A stretch of DNA of 63,218 bases, filler included, from Reclinomonas americana ATCC 50394 (lineage: Eukaryota): assembly GCA_048213135.1 (NCBI GenBank). It is 5 parts of 5 records of this genome, joined end to end, with 100 filler letters (N's around TTAATTAATTAA, not from the genome) between each part and the next. Parts side by side here need not be neighbours in the genome. Positions count along the whole stretch, not along the records: positions 1 to 29,117 come from PS015703.1; 4 more parts are not named here. One strand, 5' to 3'. Of this stretch, positions 1 to 41,857 are shown one piece after another (within the stretch, counting starts at the first letter, position 1; each line of letters opens with the position of its first letter). The notes beneath the pieces are model-generated. The model was given only the letters and a program-made list of their open reading frames with translations, did no database searches and was not told the DNA's origin. A program made the position numbers and the translations under genes.

Positions 1-103
1 ACACACACACACAACTCACTCACTCACTCACTCACTCACTCACTCACTCACTCACACACACACACTCTCTCACACACTCACTCACTCACTCTCTCACACA
101 CAC

Positions 104-390
104 CTCGCGGATCAGGCAGCTTCGGATCAGGCTTGCGATCAGTCGAGTCACAGTCTCCGGGAATCGCCTGAGGATGCGTCTGCACACACACAAACACAGA
201 GAAAGTCAGTCTCAAGTCTCTCTTACACACTCACTCTCTCTCACTCTTCTCTTCTTACCTTGTAACACTGCACTTGAGTGCCATGGCGTCGACACGGCTT
301 GTACACTCCGCGAAGGGCCGCACTCAATGACGCGCATGCGAGGAGAGTGAGCAGTGTGAGGAGGAGAAAGTGTGTGCAAGAGGCTCTCAT
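104..390 (-). CDS. 5' part of a secreted protein of unknown function (continues off the left edge)
   Basis: Exon 390-259 (MRASCTHFLLLTLLTLLACASLSAA..., hydrophobic signal-like) has a GTAAGA donor. Exon 179-104 (THPQAIPGDCDSTDRKPDPKLPDPR) is in phase, with CAG acceptor and GTGTGT donor. Confidence 0.5.
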
Positions 391-667
391 GTGGTCGTCG
401 CTCGCACGCAAGAGGCAAGAGGTGAAGAATGCCACGTGGCACTTACGTCATATTAGCGACTCTCGACGTTTGTCCCGATTGGAGTAGTCTTGCAACTGGC
501 GATGATGCTTTTTCCTTTGCAGCAGCTTGTAGTTGAGTAGGTTATTACAGTGGGTTGAGTTTTGTCAGTGCCTTTGACGGTGCAGTCGACGTCGTGAGAG
601 ATTTGCACCATTTGCATGAAATACCGGAACCGGTATTTGCAGCGATTTTCTTCTTCACGATCGTTGC

Positions 668-1185
668 CAACAACAAATTCATTCACCAGCAAACAAGCGA
701 CAGCTGTCTTGATGACCAAGTTCAACCGTATCCAAAACATCAACACAAACACCAATCTTGAGGCAGCAGCAGGTTCGAATTCCTTCACTCTCGGAGCTCC
801 AAACAAGTCGAGAACTGCGATCTTCACTGCATCAGTGTGCTTGACCAGTGGATTTGACGCACTTGCATTGACGCATAGTGTTTTCAGCGATCGTATCACG
901 GCACATCAAATTCGGGAAAAGGGTTGAACTTGGTACCATGGTCATCAAGACAGCTGTTGCTTGTTTGTTGGTGAATGAATTGTTGTTGTTGTTAAGCCAG
1001 GCTCCGAGAAGCAGGCAAAGTAAAAACAGTGGAGGCGTCGTAGTTGGTGGTGTGGCTGAACACATCTCGACTTTTTGCTCGTTTTCCGGGTTGTCTGCAG
1101 ATCTGAGTTTCTGGTGCTCACTCAAGATGGTGATCATCATGCAGCTGTGTTGCTGTTTGGATTAGTATAAAGTTGTTGTTGTTGT
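668..1185. repeat. Two back-to-back, opposite-orientation fragments of a dispersed repeat; third copy at ~10273-10617
   Basis: ~668-922 is the diverged reverse complement of ~10273-10535. ~923-992 and ~1127-1185 match ~10479-10540 and ~10548-10617 directly (shared core ggtcatcaagacagctgttgcttgtttgttggtgaatgaatt). Confidence 0.85.
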
Positions 1186-1346: not shown

Positions 1347-4340
1347 TCAGGCCAGCAGAGAGTACATGGCGGCCGTGGAGATGGCGGTCATTGTCGCAAA
1401 CGACAGGAATTTCTTCGCCTCGCGCTCCTTTTGCGCTGCCACGGCCTTGCGATCCAGCAAAAAGTCGAAACGCGTGCAAATGTACTTCCAGTGGCTGCGC
1501 CTGTTGTGCCACACGTGGAGTAAGCCTCCTTTTTCCACACACCTCCCCTTCTCCCTCGCAACCACTCACCAAATCAGCGCGTACATGCGGCCAAAGTCGG
1601 TGAGGAAGCGGCAAATGTAGCTCTCGGCCCACACTTTCGGATTCCAGATGCTCTTCTGCACGGCCACGCGTGACGCTTCCCAGCAAAAGTCGGCAAACAG
1701 GATGCCCACGGCCGACAGCAGGAGCGAGGCGACGGAGAAGGCCAGGCCTGTGTGGCACACAACATTGTGTTGGTCAACTTCTCTCTTGCAAAGAAATTGG
1801 CGAAGTAACGCACCACCACCAAACACAAAGCTCAAGGCAAAGGCGGCCACGAGGAACGAGATGAGCTCGACCGCCGACGGCAGCACGCGGAAGGTGAGGT
1901 GCGGGTGCGCAATGTTGAGGCAGCCGTCGCCAAAGGCCCAGCCGAAAAAGTGGCGATAGCACTCGCGGCGACAGGCGGCACCGTTGACGGCGGCATTGCC
2001 ATCGTCACACGAGGTGGCACCCCAGTACGGGTGACTGATGCGAGCCTCGGGCGCCGAGCGGAAGCGGCGACCATCGCAGCGCTGCACCAGCTGCAGGCAG
2101 AATTCGACATCCTCGCCACCACCTGCATCACAAACAAAAGAAGATCATCAGCGCCGGAATCATCATCACTGGTGTCTCCTCATTGATCACCCACCAGTGT
2201 TGGGGAAGAGCGGGGAGAATTCCAGCACGTTGCCGTGGCGTGGATCGTCTTTGGGGAAGCAGGTGCCCTCGACGACGGCGCGGCGCACCGCAATGTTGGC
2301 CGTCACGCCCCAAGGGCAGTACGGGCCCTTCAGTGACCAGGCCCAGCAAGCGGAAATGTCGCTGGCCACAAAGCCGCGCGTGAGCGACGTCTTGGGGTTG
2401 GGGAAGGCGGCGAGGCCGACAAAGCCCGGGAATGGCTTGTTGGGGCGGCGACTCATCTCGGCCTCGGCGCCGCGAAAGTAGGCAGCGTAGCGCTCCAGGA
2501 GGTCCTCATCGGGAATCACGTCGTCGTCGAGGAACACGATCCAGTCGCCGCTGCCGGCTTGCATGCCGCGGGTGCGGCTGCCAGAGGCACCGAGGTTGCG
2601 CTCGTTGACGAGGATGTGGAGGCGGTTGCCGCCTGGGGAGGGAAGGGAAAGGGAAAGTGAGGGGAAAGGGAAGGGCGATGTGAAAGAAAAGTCGGCAAGA
2701 GAAGGCTTCAGAGAATGAGTGAAAGAGAGAGAGAGAGAGAGAGAGAGACTGAGAGGCTGAGAGAGAGAAAGAGAGAGAACATCAACTCGCAGTAACACAC
2801 CCGTGCTCATGTCAACATGAATGAAGTTCGCATGCACAAGAGCATGGAGGCCCCTATCAGAGTGGCTCATGCAACAAGGACACAAAGAAATGGATGGAAA
2901 CTGGGCATGCAGGGATGGCGAGAGAAGAAGAACGCATCCATTCTGCGAGAGAGGACAGATCTGACGCAACAAGAGTGGAAAGAAGCGGGGCAAGCATGTG
3001 CAAGATAGGAGAACGAGAGTGCTCTCTTCTTACAACTGAGAGTGCAAAGAGAATGGCAACAAGAAGAAAGAAACGGAAGCACGGCAGAGGGCTTCACGAA
3101 GAGCGTGAGAAGGAAAAGGAAGAAGCACTACTGAGATCGGCTACTAAAAAGGACAGCAGATCACGGCGGATCAGACTGCCTCAGAGCAAGAACACGAGAA
3201 GATAGGGGCAGCAAGACAAGGCTGTCGTGCCAAGGACATGCTTTACAGCGGAGGGAGAGATGGGATCAGGAACACAGAGAGGCTTTACAACGGGACCAGC
3301 CAGATACTCTCAGAATGACAAAGGCGAAGAGTGCACTGTAGCCTCCTGGACGCGAGTCGTGACATGAGCACGGAGGAGGAGAGAAGGCGGATGACGGATA
3401 GAAGGAGAGACAGAGCTGTCTATGCTTTACAGTGGAGAGAGAGAGAGGAGGGGATCAGGAACACACAGAGGCTTTACGATGGGACACCTGAGATGAGAGG
3501 GAAGAGCACGAGATACTGTGGCCTCTAGGCTCACCACATGTGCACTGAGGAAGAGAGAGGACGGAAACCGGACAAGACGGATCGAAGGGGAAAGGCAAAG
3601 ACATGATGATCCGCGTCACAAGGACAGCGCAATTCGCAGAGATTCTCGCGCCAACCTGCGATACTCCCTCTCAGCCCTCCTCTCCCTCCCTTCCAACGTC
3701 AAGCCACAGCCTCGACCACCATTGTCTTTCTCTGATGCTCAGGCAAAAGCGCAAAGAACCTTCTCGTGCTCTCAAATTCAGATGAAGATCTCTTGCTCTC
3801 CTTTCTCGCTTGCCACGACACGCGCTGAGGTGCTGCAAGGCTCGTGCAACAACTGAGATCAACTCCCTCTCTCGCCCACTCTCTTGATTGCTCCCAACAA
3901 CTGCCTCTGCGCGAGTGTAGTCACTCTCGCTCTCTCTCTCTCTTCTCCTCTCTCCGCTTCCCTCCCCTCTCCCCTTGCCCCCTCCACGCACCCTGCAACT
4001 TCCCCCAGCTCTTGATCTCCGCCGGCAATGGAATGTGCGGATTATCAATCACCAAGTAAAAGTTGACATCCATCATGGTGTCGACTCCACCGCCCCGCTC
4101 CCGCCGATCCTCATCATCCAACGGCACATCGACGCGTCCATTTCGAATGCGCAGAATGTCGCGCAGGCGATCGAGGCGCACGCGATACGAGGGAACCACC
4201 ACGTCCATGCGAATCATTGCACCACCACTGTTGTTGTTGCGTGCTGGTCGCTCGTGGTTGAAGTCGTCGTCGTCGTCGTCCTCTGATGACGACGACCAGG
4301 TGGTCTCGTCGAACCACTGGCGTTGTTGGTGCGCTGTCAT
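1347..4340 (-). CDS. GT2-family (GT-A fold) glycosyltransferase with C-terminal membrane segments; multi-exon
   Basis: MDVVVPSYR start; NLGASGSRTRG; WIVFLDDD (DxD); TANIAVRR; TGGGEDVEF after splicing; hydrophobic C-terminal helices; one ~1.3 kb GA-rich intron. Confidence 0.85.
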
Positions 4341-4661: not shown

Positions 4662-7600
4662 TCAGTACAAGGCCCCAGAAAAATGGGGCATCAGCTCGGA
4701 ATTCCGCTCGCGCAAGCCCCCTTGGTGTCTGCGGAGTTCGCGATCCTCTGTATCAGAATTCTGGACGTTGAGCTCGACGGTGAAGACGAGCTCGCCAGCT
4801 GCGAGAACGAGGAGTACTCGAGAGTCTCGTCGTGCATCTCCGTTTGCCTCCACATCGCTGTCGCTCAGAGTAAGCTGATTCACCAAAGTGACAGCGACAG
4901 AAAGCACACCACTAGTGTGTCCTCTAAGCAGGCGCACATGTTCTCCGCTTACCACCGACCACACTCGCACAGTCATGTCATGACTCCCACTCGCAACATA
5001 CTGACCATCGGGAGTGACGGCGACTGTCCACACCACATTTGTGTTGCCAGTACATCGTCGGACTTCCTCCCCAGTTGCCAGTGACCACACTCGTACTGTC
5101 TTGTCATAACTCCCGCTCACTACATGCTGTCCGTCGAGAAAGACTGCGATAGACGACACGCCCATCTCGTGCCCTTCCAGCCGTCGCACCTCGTCGCCAC
5201 TCGCCACCGACCACACTCGCACTGTCGTGTCCTCACTCCCACTCACCACATGCAATCCATCGGGTGTCACGGCGACAGACGTGACCGCCCCCGCGTGTCC
5301 CTCAATGTGTCGCACCACTTCTCCACTCGTCAGTGACCACACTCGCACTGTTCTGTCCCCACTCCCGCTTACAACATGCTGACCATCGGGAGTGACGGCA
5401 ACGGAGTTCACCACCGAAGAATGCCCCACACAACGTCGCACTTCCTCACCGCTCGCCAACGACCACACACGCACAGTTTTGTCCCCACTCCCACTGACGA
5501 TAAACCGAGAGTCGGGAGTTACAGCGACAGACTGCACCGGCGCAGTGTGTCCCTCAAACCGTCGCACTTCTGCTCCACTCACCAGAGACCACACCCGAAC
5601 TGTCTCGTCCTTACTTCCACTCACAACGTGCTGACCATCGGGGGTGACGCCAACAGTATTCACCAAGCGACCATGACCCATAAACGGCTTCCTCGGCCAC
5701 TTCACGCCCGTCACATCCGCCTCTCTGAAGTCTGCCGCAATCGAATTCACCATGCACACATTCACCCCTCGCAAATCCGCACCCCTCCACACCGTCCTGT
5801 GCATCACCGCATCCCTCAGATCCGCACCCCTCACCCGCACACCCGACAGATCTCGCCCACTGAACGACACTTGTGCCATACACAACACCGTCGCTGCATT
5901 CGCCGCAGCCGTCACCACTCGCTCCTCATCCACCTCTTTCGACAACTCAATCACCTCCCACAGTCTCTCTTGCAACCGAGACGATCGTCGCACCACCTCA
6001 GCCATCTGCCCTACCAACGATGGTCGATCATTCAGCAGGCGCACAGCCAGCACATGCTGCTGCACATCTTGCATCGTCAATCTTCTCTCCTCATCCCAAG
6101 TCTCCCACGCAAACACATGTCGAGACACACAGTGCTCCAGCAACGACAGATGCACGAATCCCCACTGTGTCGTCCCATAGCGTCGCACAATCGGGCAGCA
6201 CACTCGCACGTGCTGGTTCTTGTGCCCGAGGAACTTGTCAAATGGTCCCTCTTCCACTCGTCGCACGGAGAGTGGCGCACCACCAAAGTCGTCCTCCTCT
6301 TCCTCTCCGTCATCACCTGCTCGATTCTCTATCACAGACACCCGCACCACATTCCTCTCATGCATCAACCGTGCCAGTCCCTCACAGAATGAGATACACA
6401 AGTCCTCACTCGGTACACGCTTCGCACCAAGGCGCGTCTGTCTCTCCTGCTCTCTCGCAATCCACTGTCGAATGAATCGGTCAAACACATCACACCGAGT
6501 TGGTCGCTGCACGCCACTCGCCACCAACTCCGGCAACACACGAGCCACCACAGCTAACAGGAACGGGTTCGATACCAGCACATCCAGCCCTCGAATACCC
6601 ATCAGCGCACGCATGTACTCCTCGGCTGTTGACCACCGCACCTCACCATCGTCATCGCTCACTCGTGACACCAGTCGCTCAATGTACTTTTCGATCTGCT
6701 CCTTGTTGAACGGCGCAATGTGTCGCTCCATCAGCTGCTGCATGCACAACTGTCCACGTGCATCCACCGGTGCAAAGTACCGTCGATATTGTGCCACACC
6801 ACCCAGCGCCGTCAGTGCGTAATCAGCGCGACAGGTGATAATCACCTTCACATCGCGGCACACATCCAGCTGGTTCTTGACAAACAGATTCACCCCACGG
6901 TACAACTCATCGTATCCGTCAAGCAACACCAGTAGTGGCTCCTCCTTCAATCGTCGCACATCCGCCTCACTGAATCCCAACTCGGGAGACAGTCGCTCCA
7001 ATGCCTCCTCCAACAGTCGCTCATCTGCATTGCGGAGAGCACCAAGAGGCACGCGCACAGGCACTCGTCTGCTCTCTCTCGCCTGCCACTGTCGCCATGC
7101 TCGCTCAGCCAGCACCGACATGGTGGTGGTCTTGCCGGCTCCGCTGTTGCCGAATAAAACCAGCACACGCTGCATGGTGTTCTTGTCGGAGAGGAAAGCA
7201 TCCACCTCCGCTAACAGGTCTGTCATCTTGTCTCTCGCGGAGACATCGCGCTCACGCGAGCACAGCAGCGGAACATACATCTGCATGTCCTTGCGCACAC
7301 TTTCATCGTGTTGGTAGAACGAGAGCTCACGAAAAGCCAGTCGATGAAGTCGCTCCTCGAAGGTGCTGACGCTGAAGTCGAGATGGCGTGCCTCACGAAT
7401 TCGCGTCGCAAATCTGGCGACTGCACCGACAGGAATGCGCAGCTTCACCAACAGGGAGAGGAAGATACCAGCGTCACCGAGATATTCGTACACAGTGGAC
7501 TCGTCCCATCCCAACGATCCATGAGCCAACTCATTCCGTACCTCACGCACCAGTTCCACAGCCTTGCGCTCTTCAGCGTCGTCAATTAGCCGCAGCTTGC

Positions 7601-8483
7601 GACCATCATCTTCAACAAAGCCACCAAACAGCAGGATCGACACCAACGCCGTCACGTCCAATGCGTCACAGGGAGGGTCGGATGACGGGTCAGCGTCAAA
7701 CACAGATCTCCATTCCAGCACGTGCTGCTGCTGTGGCTCAAATAACTTGACTCGTCCGGGATGCAGCGGTGCATGTCGATCGTACCACGCTTTTATCGCC
7801 AATGGAAGCAAGCACAACGGTGGCGTCCACACGTCAGGAGTCCATGCCCGCACATCAAAGTCGGCATGATCGCGACTGAACTGCGCCAGAGCGCATTGAC
7901 AGCGCAAACGCAATGCATCGACTACTGACTCCCACGCCACATCAACGCGATTCGAGTGCACCATTCTGTGCAAGGCGTTGCGTGAGCAACATCAACTGCA
8001 GCGCCTCGGCAGACAACAAACCGCTCTGACAATGCCGAAGCACTGGACATGAAGAATGCACTTGGATTAGCAAAACGCATCCTCTCTCACACAAGAGACA
8101 GCAGCTTCGCACGCAGAATCACCTTGGAACTCCGTTTACGGTGCCAGCTGCAGAAGCAGGCGACATGGCCACTCGCACAACCAACGGAGTGTCGCTGTTG
8201 ATGCCCAGATCGTCCAGCTCCATTCCGCCAACCTTGGCGATCTTGAACTCTGATGGCTTCTCCACCCCCACAATCTCCACTCCCTCATCACCACTCTTCT
8301 CACGCAACCGACGCGTGGCCTCGCGCAGCAAGTCCGCGAGTGTGGACGCGGCCGACATGCCCTCCACGAACACGACGAGCGCTGAATCGTGTGAGGCCAC
8401 GACACGGACAGAGAACTGCGTGTGCGATGGTCAGCACACAGTGAAAGCACACACAGCACAGAGGGAACCCGCACCGTTGACAT
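4662..8483 (-). CDS. NLR-like STAND NTPase: ubiquitin-like? N-terminus, HEPN, NACHT, pentapeptide repeats, WD40 repeats
   Basis: RNELAH (Rx4H) at 7521-7538; Walker A GNSGAGKT; Walker B LLVLLDGYDE; VIITCR; NPFLL; GFVHLSLLEH; AAANAATVL followed by xDLxG pentapeptides; ~6-7 GH...VAVTPDG..VVSGS.D.TVRVW repeats. The link to upstream exons (ATG 8483, exon ~8415-8122) is inferred from splice sites and is less certain. Confidence 0.88.
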
Positions 8484-8568: not shown

Positions 8569-9985
8569 ATGCTTGGTGAGTGTGCCTGTGCGCCTCTCTC
8601 CTCTGTGTGCGACTGTCGTTCACTTGAGTGTTTGCATGTGCGTGTTTGAACAGGCAATCCCGATGTGCCGAGCATGGTGTGTGAGAATGAGAATGAGAAA
8701 GAAACACGCGTGGATGCGCATACATACACACACACGCGCGCGCACGCACGCACACGTACGCACACACGCACACACGCATACAGGGAGAGAGAGACAAGAG
8801 AAATCGAGACTCAAGAGACGTCTTCTCTCTCCCTCCTTCCCTTCTCCTCTCTCACTTCCCCTCTTTCAGACCCTCCCCGGCCACACCGGCCGCATCCGCT
8901 GCCTGACCACCTCCCTCGACTGCCGCCGCCTGGCCAGCGCCGGCGACGACCGCATCGTGCGCATCTGGTCGCTGGACAGCGGCGACCTCTTGCACGCCTC
9001 ACACCGTCGCGACCACCCTTCCCCGATCCAGTCGGTGGCCTTTGTCGACCCCGAGGGCACGCGAGTGGTCACCGCCAGCAAGGACGGCAAGGTGCGCCAC
9101 TGGTCGCCTCTGGAGAAAGTTTTCAGTACCGTCACCGACCTCTGCCACTGCCACGTGACGGCAGTGTATGCGGTGGCGGCGGCGGTGGCGCCTCGGCACC
9201 GATTCCGACAGTGCGTCAGTGGCGGTGGCGATGGGCGTGTAATCATGCAAGGAAATCGACACAGGGCGCGATGCCAGCATTCGCATCGTGTGTGCTCGGT
9301 GGCCATCACGAGAGATGGGTCGCGCACAGTGAGCTACGACCGCAACGGCACCATTTGTGTGTGGAACACGGAGACGGAACAGTTGACGTGTCGCATGTCG
9401 CATGTGGAGGACGCGGCAAGGCGGCACCATGTTGAGTGCGTGTTGACGTTGACCCCGGACGAGCAGTGCATTGTCAGCACGGGTTACGACGGGAGGCTGC
9501 GCGTGTGGAACTTGGCGACGGGCGTGCAGGATCCGCTTCTGGCGCGAAGGTGTAGCTCTTTTTCGCACTCGGTGGCCACAGCTCTCCGCGGCGACACGGT
9601 ATTGGTGATGACCAGTGAAGACAGCGGCGTGACACTGTGGGCTCTGGATCGCACACCCGTTGTCATGCAGTTGACTGTGTACTGGCCCGGGGAAGGGGTC
9701 CGCAGCGTGACGGCGGCGGCCATGACGGCAGATGCAACTGCCATTGTGATGGGGCGTGATGACGGCGTCATTTTGGTTTGGCGTTCGCGACTGGGTGCGG
9801 CGATGGCCGAGCGAGAGGCGGCGCGGAGGGCGTGGGAGGCGCTGGCGGAAGTGGAGGGCGAGCGAGAGGAGGAAGAAGGAGACGGACAACCGCTGCCGAT
9901 GCTGGTGCTCCGGTGCTTTCTGCTGGAGGACGCCGAGGTGCAGGTGTGGAGGGTGCAGAGTGATCACGAGGTGTTGTGGTGGTGA
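8569..9985 (+). CDS. WD40-repeat protein, divergently transcribed from the NLR-like gene
   Basis: GH...LASAGDDRIVRIW, VTASKDGKVRHW, VSTGYDGRLRVW repeats. Predicted start ATG CTT G|gtgagt, then an 11-nt exon (GCAATCCCGAT) and the main exon from ~8870, giving MLGNPDTLPGH. Confidence 0.8.
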
Positions 9986-28414: not shown

Positions 28415-29161
28415 GGACTTCATTTCATTGTCAGCAGTCTGTGAGCGCATGCTGCAGTCCATCGCCCGTTTCGTTCCCTCTCGCCTCTCTCTCTCTCTCT
28501 TCTCTGTCACTCTCTGTCTCACTTTTACTCTTTTGGGGGGTTACACAGGGCACCCATGGCGATCGTTCTTTGCGGTGTCGGCCGCAGCAGGCGCTGTGCG
28601 GTACGCGCTGCTGGAGCCTGCTGAGCGCGACGATGTGCGCATTGCCGTGGAGGGCGTGTGGCGATTCGCGCGCACGGCCACTGCTGTTGAGTGTGAGCAG
28701 AAAGAGAGGAGAGAGAGATGTTAAGGAGAAGGAGAAGAGAGGGAGAGAGAGGAGAAAGAAGAAGGGGGAGGGCGACACGCTGCACCTTTTAGTCGCCACC
28801 TAACACGACTTAGGTGTCACCTTCCCCCTCTCTTCTTCGTTCTTCTTATTGTTGTCCTTCCCCTCCTCCTCGTTTCCGCTTCCATTTCCTCTTTCTCCTC
28901 TCCCTTCTCCTTCTTTTTCTGTTGTTGTTGTTGTTCTCGTTCTCCTCCTCCTCCTCCTCCTTCTTCTTCTTTTTCTCCTCTCTCTGCTCTCTGTCTTCTT
29001 CTTCTTCTTCTCTTCATCTCGTTCTTGTTCTTGTTCTTGTTCTTATTCTTCTTCTTCTTCTTCTTTTTCTTCTCCTTCGTCTTCTTCTTCTTCTTCGTCT
29101 TCTCCTCCCCTCCTCCTNNNNNNNNNNNNNNNNNNNNNNNNNNNNNNNNNNNNNNNNNNNN

Positions 29162-31872: not shown

Positions 31873-34800
31873 TCAAGGCATCGCCACCGCAGCATGTGGC
31901 ACAGGAGAAGCGTGTTGTAGCGGCCTGCACGACGCGCAAGACTGATTACAAGCGCAGTGGCAATTGCAGCAGTGATGAGCATCGCGGGCGCAGTTGTCAC
32001 TGATGGTCGTCGTCTCCGTTGGAAGCGTCGGTGGTCGATGCAGAAGGTGAGTCGGTAGAGGAGGCCTGTGCAGGAGGAATGCGACCGGAGGGGGGTGCGT
32101 CAGCGTGCGTGCGCTGTTGGCCTGTGGCGGTGGGGGCGGGCGCTCTCGAACCTTCGACCGCACCGCGACCGGTGAATATCGATGCGGAGGTTGCGTGCGT
32201 TGCTGCGTTGCGGTGGAAGAGAGTGAGAGAGGTGCAGGGGCGATGGTAGCGGGGGAAGAAACGCAACATGAACCCAGTGGCTGTGCGGGGAAGACTGTGC
32301 CGCCGAAGCGAGAGCCGGATGCTGCGGTAGCAGCAGCAGCAGCAGAGGCTTGAGTTCCTGTCAGTGTACGTCAGTGAGCAATGTGACTGGGAATGAACAG
32401 CCGTAGTGTACACATACCTGCGGTGGGAGGCTTTGGCAACGAAAACGCGAATCGCGGCTGACTTGCAGCCGTCGCTGACGACGACGATCCCGCCAGCGAC
32501 AACTTGAACGCCGGCTTGGAACCCGACACTGGTGACGACGAGAGACCGAATGGTGCACTGGAGGCGGTGGAGCTGGCGCCGACAACGCCAAATGGACTGG
32601 AAGCCGACATGGCAGCCGAGGCAGAAGGCGGCGTAACGGTCGATGAGTCAGTGGTCTCCGCCGACGCCACTGAACTCTCGGCGGCCGGTCGAGAACCGAA
32701 CGAGGCGGGCAGGATGGAACCAGCGATGGGTGCAGATGCGGCTGCCAGGAGGGAGGCAGATGGTGCTGCAGTTGATCTGGCACCGGCAGCGAAAGGATTG
32801 CTCACAGCCGCGGCATTCGAAGCACCAGCTGCTTTCGATCCGAACGCAAATGTGCCACCTGCACTCGCTGCACTCGATGCTGCCGGTGCAGTCGGTGCGG
32901 CAGCTGGTGCTGCTGGTTTCGAGCCAAATGCAAATGCGCCACCAGCACTCGACGTACTCGATGCTGTTGGTGCACTTGGTGCGGCTGAAGCTGGCGCTGC
33001 TGGTTTCGAGCCGAATGCGAATGTGCCACCGACACTCGCTGCACTCGACGCTGCCGGTGCAATCGGTGCGGCTGAAGTTGGTGCTGCTGGTTTCGATCCG
33101 AATGCGAACGAGCCACCCGCACTCGCTGCGCTCGATGCCGGTGCCGCTGAAGCTGGTGCTGCTGGCTTCGAGCCGAATGGGAATGAACCACCTGCACTCG
33201 CCGGACTCGATGCTGCTGGAGCAATCGGTGCGGCTGAAGTTGGGGCTGCTGGCTTCGAGCCGAATGGGATGCCACTGCCTGCACTCGCCGCACTCGAAGC
33301 TGCTGGTGCTGCTGGTTTCGAGCCAAATGCAAATGCGCCACCCGTACTCGCTGCACTCGATGCTGCTGGTGCAACCGGTGCAGCAGGAGCTGGTGCTGCT
33401 GGCTTCGAACCGAATGCGAATGTGCCACCGACACTCGCTGCACTCGACGCTGCCGGTGCAATCGGTGCAGGTGAAGCTGGTGCTGTTGGTTTCGAGCCAA
33501 ATGCAAATGCGCCACCAGCACTCGCTGCGCTCGATGCCGTCGGTGCAATCGGCGGTGCTACTGGTTTCGAGCCGAATGCGCCACCCGCACTCGCTGCACT
33601 CGATGCCGGTGCCGCTGATGCTGGTGCTGCTGGTTTCGATCCGAATGGGAAGGAACCGCCAGCACTCGCCGCACTCGATGCTGCTGGTGCAGCCGGTGCA
33701 GCAGGAGCTGGCGCTGCTGGTTTCGAGCCAAATGCAAATGCGCCACCCGCACTCGCCGCACTCGATGCTGCTGGTGCTGCAGGTTTCGAGCCAAATGCAA
33801 ATGCGCCACCCGTACTCGCTGCACTCGATGCTGCTGGTACAATCGGCGGTGCTGCAGCAGGTGCTGCTGGCTTCGAACCGAATGCGAATGTGCCACCGAC
33901 ACTCGCTGCACTCGACGCTGCCGGTGCAATCGGTGCGGCTGAAGTTGGTGCTGCTGGTTTCGATCCGAATGCGAACGAGCCACCCGCACTCGCCGCACTC
34001 GATGCTGCCGGTGCACTTTGTGCCGCTGCAGCAGGCGCTGCTGGTTTCGATCCGAACGGGAACGAGACGCCTGCACTCGCCGCACTTGAGGCTACGGGCG
34101 CAATCGGTGCAGCTGAAGCTAATGCTGCTGGTTTCGAGCCGAACGGGAAGGAGCCAGTCGTCGATGCGGCTGTCGACTTGCCACCGGCAGCAAACGGGTT
34201 GACAACACTCGCTGCTGCTGCTGCCGGTGCTGGCTTCGCAGCAAATGGATTACCAGCAATTGGTGCACTGGCTGACGCTGATTTGGCACCGGCAGCAAAT
34301 GGATTTCCGGTAGTCTGTGGTCTCGGTGCTGGCCGGGCCCCGCCCGCCGCACTTGCCTCCGCTGGCGGAGTAACACTGGTCGAAGTTCCTTTGGCGCCGA
34401 GTGCCAGCAACATCTGGGCAACTTGCGCGTTCGCCGACTTTGATTCTTCACGCATTGAAGAAGGCCTCTGTGAGTCAGCGACTGGGTCAGTGGTGCGTCG
34501 TTGACAAGGAACCGGAGCAGAGAAGCATACCGATTCCGGCGACGCAGTCACGCCGGTATCCTCAGCTGCTGCTGACACCCCACCAGGTGCTAGACCGGGG
34601 TTGGATGCTGCCACCAAAAAGAACTATGAACGAAGAGCCATCTTCGCGCCAGCGAGGCAAACCACACGCAAACCTGCCAGCAAGCACACAAATCGCTGTG
34701 CCATGTCACTCCCGTCGGCCACGGCGGCAGCCTCGACGCCACTGCCCGCCAGTCGCCGCGCGCACGTCTCGTTGCCCTCAACCAGGTTGCACAGGAGTGC

Positions 34801-36583: not shown

Positions 36584-38192
36584 ATGAAGTTCCTCGCCAT
36601 CTCCGCAATCTTCCTCACTCTCGTCGCTGCGGCGTACGCTGGCGGCGGTGCATGCACCAACGCAGGAGGCCAATGCAACCCCAACGTTGCGTGGACACAC
36701 AAGCGTCTCTCTCTCCTGTGGTAGGCTTGCTCACCGTTTCTGTATGCGCAGGGCTTCTGCAACGGCGGTGCCTGTGTGTGTCACTCTGTGAGTTTGTCAT
36801 TATTTTTCCGAACACGTCACACCTCATTGCTTTCAAACCACTCACACATGCCACCGCATCCGCACAGAACTGCTTCAACCTCGGCGGCAACAACAACGTG
36901 TGCGCTCAGTGGGCTGGTCCGTTCTGCTCGTGGTGAGTGGCAAAAGAGAGGGAAATGCTTGTTCACTGTTGTTTGCACTTTTCCGATTTCGCGGGTCGCA
37001 CCGCTGAGAAGGACTTCGCACCACCTCTATGTGTGGCCCCACGCCCATTTCTTTGCTCTGTCGCGCTTGCTCGTTTGCACGGAAGTCACTTTTTGTTCGC
37101 TTCTCACAACACTCGTTTTCGCAGCCACCCGCACGTCTCCTGCAACGACCACGGCAACTGCAACGCGGCAGGTGCGTGCGTCTGCAACGCTGGCTTCTTT
37201 GGCGCCTCGTGCTCGGTGGCATGCTCGGTTCGTTTGCTGTTCTTCCTCCCACCGATCTTTCTCGCCACTACTGCTCACCGCACTGCTGCAAACAACAGGC
37301 CGCCACCACCTGCAATGGCCACGGCACCTGCAACAGCAGTGGCGCCTGCGTGTGCACTGGCAACTTCACTGGTGCCAGCTGCAACACCTGCACGGCCAAC
37401 TACTACGGTGCCGGTTGTGACGTGTTCTGCGATGCGGCCGTGACATGCTCCGGTAACGGCTCGTGCGACGCGAGCGGTGCCTGCGTGTGCTCCGGCAACT
37501 TTGCCGGTGCCGACTGCACCTCATGCGCGGCCGACTACTATGGTGCTGCTTGCGACGTGTTCTGCAATGCCGCCACCACCTGCAATGGCAACGGCTCGTG
37601 CGATGCCGCTGGTGCCTGCGTGTGCACTGGTAACTTCACTGGTGCCAGCTGCAACTCCTGCACGGCCAACTACTACGGTGCCGGTTGTGACGTGTTCTGC
37701 GATGCGGCCGTGACATGCTCCGGTAACGGCTNNNNNNNNNNNNNNNNNNNNCGTGCGACGCGAGCGGTGCCTGCGTGTGCTCTGGCAACTTTGCCGGTGC
37801 CGACTGCACCTCATGCGCGGCCGACTACTTTGGCGCTGCCTGCGACGTGTTCTGCAATGCCGCCACCACCTGCAGCGGCAACGGCTCGTGCGATGCCGCT
37901 GGTGCCTGCGTGTGCTCTGGCAACTTTGCCGGTGCCGACTGCAACTCATGCGTGGCCGACTACTTTGGCGCTGCCTGCGACGTGTTCTGCGACGCGGCCA
38001 TGACATGCAGTGGCAACGGCTCATGCAATGCCAGCGGTGCTTGCGACTGCAGCACCGACTTCTACACTGCCGACTGCTCAGTGTCGTGCACGGTGAGTTT
38101 GGCAGATCGAGTGGTCGCCGTCGTCGTTTTCTGTCACTGACTCTGTTTCTCTCACTGAGAAAAGGCTGCCACCACGTGCTCTGGCAACGGCT
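36584..38192 (+). CDS. Secreted cysteine-rich EGF/laminin-EGF-like repeat protein, copy 1 (3' end appears in inverted contig 38307-38614)
   Basis: Signal MKFLAISAIFLTLVAAAYA; 45-aa, 8-Cys repeats (CDAAVTCSGNGSCDASGACVCSGNFAGADCTSCAADYYGAACDVF). Confidence 0.85.
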
Positions 38193-39537: not shown

Positions 39538-41857
39538 ATGAAGTTCCTCGCCATCTCCGCAATCTTCCTCACCCTCGTCGCTGCGGCGTACGCTGGCGGC
39601 GGTGCATGCACCAACGCAGGAGGCCAATGCAATCCAAACGTTGCGTGGTCCACGTGTCTGTGCCGTGACGCAATCGAACTCACCGTCGTCTGTTCGTTCA
39701 TCTCCCTTCCTCTTCTTCTTTTACAGGGCTTCTGCAACTCCAGCCATGTCTGCGAGTGCCATAACGTGAGTAGTCGTCCTCCTCATGTTTCCGAGTCGCG
39801 ATCGCATCGAATCTGCGCATCTTTGTCTGTCTGTCACGCGCAACTCATCACTGTCCTTCCCCCTACTTCATTGCAGAACTGCTACAACCTCGGCGGCAAC
39901 AACAACGTGTGCGCTGTGTGGGCCGGCCCGTTCTGCACTTGGTGAGTGGTGTGTGTTCGGTTTCTCCTGTATTTTTGGCAGCGAGGTCCGTCCACGGCCA
40001 CACACGCACAGACACATCAGCAGTACTTCTGAAGCCGCTCGTTAGACATGATAATACTCTCCTGTCTTCTGGAATACCAACAGTTGAACCACAAACGCCT
40101 TTGGGGCTGTGGTTTCAGTTTTCTCTTCGCATCTTTTGCAATAGTTGCTGACAAGGAAGGAGACAGCAGCGCGTGCTGTTGTCACTGCTGAGGCACAGAG
40201 ACTAAGAAGGAGCATGAGGAAGACATTGCTGTGTTCAGTTTCTTCGGTCTCCCTGTCGTCAGACGTCGACGTCTGTCTTCCCCTCTGTTCTTCTTTGATC
40301 TTTCTTGCTTTGTTCTTCTTCTTATTCTTCTTCCACCGTCACCACCACCGCCACCGCCTCCACCTTGCACTACCTCTCAACCTTTTCTTCCTCTTCCTCC
40401 CTCCTCTTCCTCCTCCTCCTCCCCCTCTTCCTTCCTCCCTCCCTCCCTCCCTCCCTCTCCTCCTCCTCCTTCTCACTCACTTGTCTTCCTCCGGCAGCCA
40501 CCCGCACGTCACCTGCAACGACCACGGCAGCTGCAACGCGGCGGGTGCCTGCGTCTGCAACGCCGGCTACTTTGGCTCTGACTGCAAGACTCTGTGCTCG
40601 GTTCGTCTGCTGTCCTTCCCACCACTCACTCGTCTTCGCCACTGCTGCTCACCGCACTGCAAACAACAGGCTGCCACCACCTGCAACGGCCACGGCACCT
40701 GCAACGGCAGCGGCGCCTGCGTGTGCACTGGCAACTTCACTGGTGCCAGCTGCAACACCTGCACGGCCAACTACTACGGTGCCGGCTGCGACGTGTTCTG
40801 CGACGCTGCCACCACCTGCAGCGGCCACGGCTCGTGCAACAGCAGCGGCGCTTGCGTGTGCTCTGGCCACTTTGCTGGCGCCAGCTGCAACACCTGCGCG
40901 GCCAACTACTTCGGCGCCGGCTGCGACGTGTTCTGCGACGCTGCCACCACCTGCAGCGGCCACGGCACTTGCGACTCGAACGGTGCCTGCGTGTGCACTG
41001 GTAACTTCACTGGTGCCAGCTGCAACACCTGCACGGCCAACTACTACGGCGCTGCCTGCGACGTGTTCTGCGACCCCGCCATGACCTGCAGCGGCAACGG
41101 CTCGTGCAACAGCAGCGGTGCTTGCGTGTGCTCGGGCCACTTTGCCGGTGCCAGCTGCAACACCTGCGCTACCAACTACTTTGGCGCCGGCTGCGACGTG
41201 TTCTGCGACGCTGCCACCACCTGCAGCGGTCACGGCTCGTGCGACTCGAGCGGTGCCTGCGTGTGCACTGGTAACTTCACTGGTGCCAGCTGCAACACCT
41301 GCACGGCCAACTACTACGGCGCTGCCTGCGACGTGTTCTGCGACCCCGCTATGACATGCAGCGGCAACGGCTCGTGCAACGCCAGCGGTGCTTGCGTGTG
41401 CAACGCCGACTTCTACACTGCCAACTGCTCGGTGTCGTGCACGGTGAGTTTGGGAAGATGCAGAGTTCGACCTGTCTTTGTTTGTTGTCACTGATTCTTC
41501 TTCTTGTTTCATCCACTGTAGGCCGCCACCACCTGCTCTGGCCACGGCTCCTGCAACGCCAGCGGCACGTGCGTGTGCTCGAACGGCTTCTCGGGCTCCG
41601 ACTGCAGTGTGCCGCCCAACAACTTCTGCAACGTCGACAATGACTGCCTGGCTCAGTCGCTCGGCGCTCATGCCGGCAATGGTGGACTGATCGACGGTGG
41701 CCGGTGTGTGTCGGGCCAGTGCCAGTGCCTGCAGGGCAACTCTGGCCTGCACTGCGAGTGCCGCGCCGACTCCATCTTGTGCCCGACTGCGGGTCAGAAT
41801 GTGGCCGTGTTCGACACCACGACGGGTCTGTTGAGCGGCTGCGCTTCGGTGTGCTAA
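39538..41857 (+). CDS. Secreted cysteine-rich EGF/laminin-EGF-like repeat protein, copy 2
   Basis: First coding exon nearly identical to copy 1; same intron positions; 135-bp repeats; ends ...TTTGLLSGCASVC* with no obvious TM or GPI tail. Confidence 0.9.

Follow-up and report, generated by a model that had tools for sequence, protein, structure and literature searches.

A predicted NLR-like receptor gene of Reclinomonas americana with a HEPN-like N-terminal domain on a NACHT-pentapeptide-WD40 chassis

Introduction

Immunity in animals, plants, fungi, and bacteria depends centrally on NOD-like receptor (NLR)-type receptors that carry enzymatic warheads; to our knowledge, such receptors are little documented in protists. 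The window analyzed here, i.e., the whole 63,218-nucleotide stretch of DNA from Reclinomonas americana ATCC 50394 (five joined parts of GenBank assembly GCA_048213135.1), carries on its minus strand an open reading frame (ORF) at 4662-7973 that runs for 1103 codons without interruption and is the longest of the window, the runner-up having 748 aa. An earlier inspection of the letters without database searches (the sequence-only reading) had taken this locus to encode an NLR-like receptor with a HEPN RNase effector and a pentapeptide-WD40 sensor. The question is thus what kind of protein this is, and whether its N-terminus is indeed a HEPN domain. The gene is a genuine, intact eukaryotic NLR-like (STAND) gene; we think that the N-terminus of its product probably has a HEPN fold, though this is well short of secure.

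The NACHT-Pentapeptide-WD40 Body

The domain order proposed in the sequence-only reading (N-terminal module, NACHT, pentapeptides, WD40) is intact on the minus strand, with Pfam matches above their cut-offs (Table 1). The predicted product belongs to the NLR-like STAND proteins: its NACHT ATPase is intact, and toward the C-terminus follow a pentapeptide beta-helix and a WD40 propeller of seven blades. In an alignment of the window protein with ten relatives (alignment A1), it kept all 21 of the 21 invariant columns; the NACHT motifs fall on invariant columns G25, G28, K31, D102, G103, D105, E106, R132, and H358, and the winged-helix histidine of the module lies in FVH (residues 606-608; numbering is along the 1103-codon ORF). 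An AAANA cap (residues 689-697), of which N442 and A443 are likewise invariant in A1, precedes the pentapeptides.

The Pfam WD40 match covers six stretches, and the underlying DNA is a tandem array repeating every 126 nt (5.8 copies; 69% matches; Tandem Repeats Finder). The six clear repeats share 52-71% amino acid identity, and their variation is concentrated at columns 3-5, 7, 23, 25, 41, and 42. The seventh starts normally and then degenerates. No complete seventh blade was found in a downstream exon, in any frame, between position 4662 and the next gene, a GT2 glycosyltransferase gene starting near 4340; we read this last repeat as degenerate.

Relatives and Phylogeny of the Body

A word-seeded search with residues 1-760 retrieved 25 proteins at E ≤ 0.001, the top matches being five from EukProt (the two looked up are from Cyanophora paradoxa) and three from Linnemannia, the latter with 27-31% identity. 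By BLASTP, the similarity spans residues 179-1023 with a Linnemannia protein (2e-82) and residues 202-1029 with a Cyanophora protein (3e-81); the pairwise alignments with these relatives never reach the N-terminus. In a scan of prokaryotes using one genome per species, 206 of 552 pattern matches were relatives, the best from metagenome-assembled genomes (MAGs) of Mycoavidus cysteinexigens (30-32% identity over 510 aa) and from a Coxiellaceae MAG. Some of the Mycoavidus matches sit on 2.4-3.0-Mb scaffolds and are therefore not fungal contamination. The best overall identities to the window protein (Linnemannia proteins and Mycoavidus MAG loci) were 27-33%, and none was above 33%. The kinship with Mortierellaceae fungi and their bacterial endosymbionts, which the sequence-only reading had named, thus holds, and the architecture itself has been published (see below). 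The prokaryotic members nearest the eukaryotic NACHT-pentapeptide-WD40 proteins all come from intracellular bacteria (the Coxiellaceae MAG L006 and the Mycoavidus MAGs among L001-L012).

A tree of the NACHT-to-pentapeptide region was built from 82 sequences whose match spanned profile positions ≤20 to ≥335. The window protein fell in a 20-row clade (Shimodaira-Hasegawa approximate likelihood ratio test, 97) that also holds four Cyanophora, three Linnemannia, 11 Mycoavidus, and one Coxiellaceae sequences. In a 28-row mixture-model tree, the clade of the window protein and those relatives received 79/69, and a Mycoavidus, Linnemannia, and Coxiellaceae clade, with the window protein outside it, received 98/98; the pairing of the window protein with Cyanophora was unsupported (56/44). 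Its terminal branch is long, 1.3-1.5 changes per column (1.49 in the 28-row tree). According to these trees, the window protein is a member of a NACHT-pentapeptide-WD40 clade common to Cyanophora, Mortierellaceae fungi, and intracellular bacteria. The phylogeny does not bear out the recent acquisition that the sequence-only reading had considered possible, nor is it the vertical eukaryotic one that had been named as arguing against any transfer, because an old inter-domain transfer somewhere in the history of the clade is likely.

Relatives of the body differ at their N-termini. Of the 80 bacterial loci kept, 55 had a long enough upstream ORF and were scanned there; they carried TIR_2 (13), Mrr_cat (13), ARM_5 (7), NNH5 (3), SIR2_2 (2), PNP_UDP (2), and Trypsin_2, EAD1, and HD-CE (one each), with eight having no family. 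ARM_5 was found on seven of the 11 Mycoavidus N-termini scanned, often with TPR, and the Cyanophora members have TIR and SAM. Because relatives swap modules at this position, the chassis reads as modular and its N-terminal position as an effector slot. By the same comparison, the N-terminus of the window protein is unique among the relatives seen.

The N-Terminal Domain

HEPN domains, as characterized in PMC3710099, have an Rx4-6H motif at the end of helix 3, in which N, D, or H follows the arginine; inserts occur between helices 2 and 3, and helix 4 is often kinked. Both RNELAH and DVTALVSIL lie where the sequence-only reading had placed them (Table 1), and R146-N147-E-L-A-H151 has the Rx4H spacing as well as the polar residue after the arginine. 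In both of two AlphaFold runs, RNELAH occupies the C-terminal end of a predicted 20-residue helix and is followed by a loop, and the helix layout of these low-confidence models matches the published HEPN description (PMC3710099). The strict pattern RNxxxH is rare: the window's six-frame ORFs average 0.05 copies per 250 aa, and when the N-terminal 250 residues were shuffled 20,000 times, it arose in only 0.8% of the shuffles. Among Atlas language-model neighbors, the nearest three clusters are PF18738 (HEPN_DZIP3; 0.78-0.79), HEPN_Swt1 scores 0.77, a further cluster has HEPN_DZIP3 on 38% of its members, and nine of the ten best family-bearing matches share a family or clan. Sub-threshold matches were also obtained to Pfam HEPN_Swt1 (12.3-13.5 bits against a cut-off of 27.5, E 0.09-0.21, in seven of nine sub-segments) and, on a shorter segment, to PADLOC CARF_HEPN (E 0.021), both within residues 131-158.

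A possible bridge to bacteria came from tblastn of residues 79-200 against plasmids. The best match (E 0.8) is a hypothetical protein of 216 aa that shows 35% identity across residues 118-177. It and the window N-terminus are identical at 22 of 63 positions and have in common the extended motif RK-A-x-E-x-x-R-x-x-RN-x-LAHG around helix 3. This 216-aa RNxLAHG family is unannotated, occurs on alphaproteobacterial plasmids and chromosomes, and was found in 6/401 and 4/401 sampled genomes. Its genes adjoin ParB-N genes, and on a Shinella plasmid the gene directly precedes an overlapping gene for an "abortive infection family protein". All ten family sequences, at identities down to 27%, keep the R, N, and H of the motif. 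Five of seven members match Pfam HEPN pEK499_p136 (PF18736; best E 6.2e-5), although the match of the member in question is sub-threshold (13.4 bits against a cut-off of 26.6); aligned to a bona fide PF18736 member, the family matched over its full length with 24% probability, and the family profile found nothing relevant in PDB. These proteins are probably HEPN pEK499_p136-like RNases. Using hhalign, the family aligned to the window N-terminus with a probability of 48.5% (seven sequences) or 43.4% (ten sequences) and a score of 33.7, the similarity spanning only 41-54 columns within residues 117-170. Control scores were 13.8 +/- 2.5 for full shuffles, 18.0 +/- 2.8 when RNELAH was kept, and 25.7 +/- 2.4 when an 11-mer was kept; the score of 33.7 was reached by none of the 60 shuffles in each of the three control sets.

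Further searches with the N-terminus found no relatives among PDB sequences, none in NCBIfam, and, for the whole 250 aa, none in PADLOC. In JGI metagenome DNA there were 317 pattern matches, of which none was confirmed, and tblastn detected no relative in the window or in the 80 prokaryote loci (best E 1.5). Weak, recurrent matches by tblastn of residues 86-150 upstream of NACHT in Actinomadura and Nonomuraea loci were rejected as noise because they lie in or adjoin TIR domains.

Proposed Mechanism and Competing Explanations

Taking the gene as a whole, we incline, with moderate confidence, to a ligand-activated RNase NLR with a divergent HEPN head. The WD40/pentapeptide part would bind a trigger ligand, which would free the NACHT module for nucleotide exchange and oligomerization, and oligomerization would gather the N-terminal domains. 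The latter are most likely divergent HEPN domains in which R146-N147-x3-H151 closes helix 3, and paired copies would gain activity and, like RNase L and Ire1 (PMC3710099), cleave RNA independently of metal, leading to translation shutdown or cell death. A small, possibly ubiquitin-like domain from an upstream exon may precede the HEPN-like domain. A bolder version, which we regard as tentative and somewhat unlikely, is that the N-terminus founds an uncatalogued eukaryotic HEPN RNase family that was grafted, with a ubiquitin-like cap, onto the chassis after the latter had passed between intracellular bacteria and eukaryotes. If that were true, there would be an RNase-armed NLR in a unicellular eukaryote, combining a bacterial-type sensor with a eukaryote-type warhead, and the NLR clade would be spread over at least three distant eukaryotic lineages.

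Several observations weigh against a HEPN RNase head. No Pfam HEPN family reached its threshold on the N-terminus; PF18738 matched neither residues 1-250 (E ≤ 1) nor any of nine sub-segments (E ≤ 10), and the window protein is therefore not filed as a PF18738 member. The unrelated DUF3764 was as strong as HEPN_Swt1 (E 0.05-0.23 in six of the same nine segments) and was the sole Pfam match of residues 1-250 (E 0.23). Every sub-threshold HEPN profile match centers on RNELAH, i.e., on the same short motif, and bare Rx4H is no more frequent than chance would give: the protein holds nine copies, and the six-frame ORFs of the window average 1.5 per 250 aa. A second acidic element, Ex3[KR], has no convincing placement in the N-terminus. 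An exhaustive phmmer search of 1.84 billion representatives with residues 1-250 yielded no match at E ≤ 0.001, and word-seeded searches yielded none at E ≤ 10 (585 near-length candidates and 2316 longer ones). The two AlphaFold runs, each from a single sequence, were of low confidence (pLDDT, the predicted local distance difference test, 41.0 and 45.7), and Foldseek of the second model against PDB returned nothing at E ≤ 0.001, its rows being unrelated helical proteins; the structural and profile checks thus failed to back the fold claimed in the sequence-only reading. A homodimer prediction for residues 45-215, which scored 0.00 in both runs with the fold uncertain, speaks neither for nor against such a dimer. 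Atlas scores below 0.9 are leads only, and the hhalign link, at a probability of 43-49%, is post hoc because the RNxLAHG family was picked, at E 0.8, with the window N-terminus as the query. No HEPN domain was present on any of the 55 bacterial N-termini scanned. Finally, we infer sensing, oligomerization, and RNase activity, all three, from STAND and HEPN biology.

An alternative is that the N-terminus is not HEPN at all but a lineage-specific helical module in which RNELAH is coincidental; such a module might serve as an adaptor or as a membrane-targeting bundle, or be a NACHT N-terminal helical domain. The lack of a family at threshold, of homologs, and of a predicted fold all fit such a module, as do the frequency of bare Rx4H, the equal strength of the DUF3764 noise match, and the helical N-termini of relatives (e.g., ARM_5 and NNH5). 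We nevertheless consider it unlikely, though with a substantial chance of being correct: RNxxxH is rare in shuffles, its position at a helix end fits HEPN, three separate HEPN profiles together with the language-model neighbors indicate HEPN and no other fold, and the hhalign score exceeded all 180 of the full or motif-keeping shuffles. A HEPN fold might also be present without any RNase effector role, either binding RNA, or having a regulatory function, or persisting as a relic that has lost its activity; we consider this improbable. Inactive HEPN versions, including Swt1 and several fusions, are listed in PMC3710099, and the unclear upstream acidic element would agree with one, but inactive versions lose the R, polar N, and H residues (PMC3710099), which in the window protein are all present at the commonest spacing.

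It is very improbable that the gene was recently imported from a bacterium or endosymbiont, or that it reflects bacterial contamination of the assembly. Its nearest prokaryotic relatives are indeed intracellular, its 3.3-kb main exon lacks introns, and its GC content at third codon positions (GC3), 0.61, is below that of four of the five neighboring coding stretches (0.71-0.82). However, the fifth, the GHMP-kinase neighbor, is close at 0.64, split eukaryotic genes lie nearby (GT2) and further along the window (DSL/EGF), and 5' introns are probable. For these reasons, and with identity not exceeding 33% (32-33% for the best), a recent acquisition is unsupported; the length of the terminal branch and the placement of the window protein outside the 98/98 clade of Mycoavidus, Linnemannia, and Coxiellaceae sequences argue in the same direction.

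Comparison with Known Systems

HEPN-NACHT fusions in animals comprise the DZIP3-like and CXorf38 families, which have undergone lineage expansion in Nematostella, oyster, and Capsaspora; HEPN-STAND proteins of bacteria have also been published (PMC3710099). More than 50 oyster NACHT proteins have an N-terminal DZIP3-like HEPN, some of them with WD40 (Takeuchi et al. 2022, PMC9646362), and oyster TRADD-N proteins combine HEPN with WD40 (PMC8195603). Like the DZIP3/hRUL138-like HEPN-NACHT proteins of bivalves, cnidarians, and other animals, the window protein has an N-terminal Rx4H with Asn after the Arg, then NACHT, then C-terminal repeats (WD40 in some); a role as an immune RNase has been proposed for these animal proteins, which are also the nearest language-model neighbors of the window N-terminus. 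It differs from them in having no PF18738 match, in its NACHT belonging to a different clade with a pentapeptide segment, and in its unicellular host.

The chassis has closer counterparts. NACHT-PPR-WD40 NOD-like receptors are common to Mortierellomycota and Mycoavidus (Ciach et al. 2024, PMC11291939; Wojciechowski et al. 2022, PMC9815663), and the window protein shares with them a homologous NACHT, helical/winged-helix, pentapeptide, and WD40 succession, a modular N-terminus, and a supported clade. It is nonetheless only 27-33% identical to those of Mortierellomycota and Mycoavidus cysteinexigens and outside their 98/98 subclade, and their N-termini are ARM-like or TPR rather than HEPN-like. 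The design of sensor repeats, NACHT switch, and swappable N-terminal effector is also that of the bNACHT anti-phage proteins (Kibby et al., 10.1101/2022.07.19.500537); that paper lists HEPN among its domain abbreviations and proposes repeated transfer to eukaryotes from intracellular bacteria. Its main text, as accessible, contains no tested protein of the window architecture, and, unlike bNACHT genes, the window gene is eukaryotic with putative introns.

RNase L and Ire1 (KEN-type HEPN) would resemble the window protein in that ligand-driven self-association forms the RNase site, and sites of their type require the R, the next polar residue, and the H (PMC3710099). No sequence relation to them was found, however, and they lack NACHT, have a pseudokinase scaffold, and contain a circularly permuted HEPN. 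The bacterial RNxLAHG/pEK499_p136 proteins differ from the window protein in being stand-alone proteins whose N-terminal halves cannot be aligned with it.

HEPN-NACHT proteins and NACHT-pentapeptide-WD40 proteins have thus both been published, and it is the HEPN-like head on the latter chassis that is new. In our literature searches, we found no description of a HEPN-type head on a NACHT-pentapeptide-WD40 chassis, and found that chassis in protists only via database entries; supplements may hold a description of either. If the HEPN assignment is true, the HEPN-NACHT design of bivalves and cnidarians extends to a unicellular eukaryote and to a different NACHT chassis, one so far tied to Mortierella fungi and Mycoavidus endosymbionts, and effector swapping after the inter-domain spread of a chassis becomes directly testable. 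The protein is compact and would lend itself to study as a model of HEPN RNases that are activated by proximity. Should the assignment fail, this is one more NLR with an orphan N-terminus.

Gene Model and Feature Coordinates

The first in-frame ATG of the 1103-codon ORF is at 7964, and a two-intron gene model starting at a putative ATG at 8483 is plausible (Table 1). The main exon agrees with the roughly 3-kb single exon of the sequence-only reading. A codon-usage log-likelihood ratio (LLR), with the codon table trained on the remainder of the gene, was positive in frame 0 in 18 of 18 windows across residues 1-285. In exon 2 it was +0.18 per codon in the needed frame only (-0.14 and -0.36 in the others), compared with 0.35 +/- 0.10 in frame and -0.31 +/- 0.17 out of frame in the main ORF. 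The stretch assigned to intron 2 has stops or non-positive LLR in all three frames. A TCCAG at ~8044 was rejected as an alternative acceptor of intron 2 because the resulting frame runs into a stop. From these readings, the gene probably carries two predicted spliceosomal introns.

The ubiquitin-like first domain suggested in the sequence-only reading would correspond to exon 2. The Atlas neighbors of its peptide were named ubiquitin-like or Rad60-SLD (0.85-0.88), but there was no relevant Pfam family at E ≤ 10, and the top PDB match was the unrelated V-ATPase subunit G (E 0.21). The label therefore stays a lead only.

Table 1. Predicted features of the NLR-like gene, with loci of the bacterial RNxLAHG family; positions are those of the window unless a locus is named.
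Feature	Position	Residues	Strand	Basis or remark
Putative start codon ATG	8481..8483		-	Sequence reading; continues in frame into the next exon only after removal of intron 8416-8474
Putative first coding exon, 9 nt	8475-8483		-	Sequence reading
Putative intron 1, 59 nt, GTGCGG...CTGAC...CAG	8416..8474		-	Sequence reading; branch-like CTGAC ~15 nt before AG
Putative exon 2, 97 codons; possible ubiquitin-like (beta-grasp) domain	8123..8415		-	Codon-usage LLR
Putative intron 2, 157 nt, GTGATT...CTCAC...CAG	7966..8122		-	Donor/acceptor pair joining exon 2 to the main ORF in frame (AG|A = Arg)
Main exon; HEPN-like, NACHT, pentapeptide, and WD40 modules	4662..7965		-	Uninterrupted to TGA stop at 4662-4664
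HEPN-like helical domain	7443..7739	~79-177	-	Helices agree between two low-confidence AlphaFold runs
Predicted helices		H1 79-93; H2 107-116; insert 117-131; H3 132-151; kinked H4 158-177 (158-166 + 169-177)		
DVTALVSIL	7632-7658	106-114	-	Sequence motif
RNELAH, candidate Rx4H catalytic motif (R146, N147, H151)	7521..7538	146-151	-	Sequence motif
NACHT NTPase, PF05729	6672..7169	269-434	-	35.0 bits, cut-off 26.7 (Pfam search, residues 251-760)
NACHT Walker A, GNSGAGKTT	7125-7151	275-283	-	Sequence motif
NACHT Walker B, LLVLLDGYDE	6906-6935	347-356	-	Sequence motif
NACHT sensor-1 Arg, R382 in VIITCR	6828-6845	377-382	-	Sequence motif
Pentapeptide-repeat segment, 12 five-residue units	5700..5879	699-758	-	PF00805, 25.8 bits, cut-off 20.2; units read by eye
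WD40 beta-propeller, six 42-residue repeats and a degenerate seventh	4749..5678	766-1017 (six repeats)	-	PF00400, 213.6 bits, cut-off 27
RNxLAHG family loci	L081 2683-3333; L082 2501-3151; also L083-L091			

Neighboring Genes and the Rest of the Window

The GT2 glycosyltransferase gene (2187-4340, minus strand) lies downstream of the NLR-like gene and is split into three or more coding blocks, one of the gaps being ~1.3 kb; it is the only direct sign in the neighborhood of the intron-rich structure mentioned in the sequence-only reading. On the other side, a WD40-repeat ORF (8573-9985, plus strand; Pfam WD40, 87 bits) and the NLR-like gene are arranged head-to-head, with ~380 nt of CA/TG-rich spacer between them. 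The ORF shares 31% identity with the WD40 part of the NLR and has no in-frame ATG ahead of its own WD40 part.

Across the whole window, Rfam gave no matches. There are 19 N runs (3640 N in total), which recur about every 10 kb, include 400-650-N and 20-N gaps, and account for the low-GC bins; trios of 44 N, 12 nt, and 44 N start at 29118, 38193, 49124, and 59157. These runs look like scaffolding. The 748-aa ORF (32371-34617, minus strand) has no Pfam match, contains tandem DNA repeats (32828-34156, 75-85% identity), and is overlapped by a 666-aa ORF on the opposite strand. A DSL/EGF-repeat coding region is present on the plus strand in two copies, 37121-38192 and 40494-41549, that are 82% identical; the second matches Pfam DSL (107.9 bits) and a Teneurin-like EGF, i.e., a Delta/Serrate-type ligand domain in a protist.

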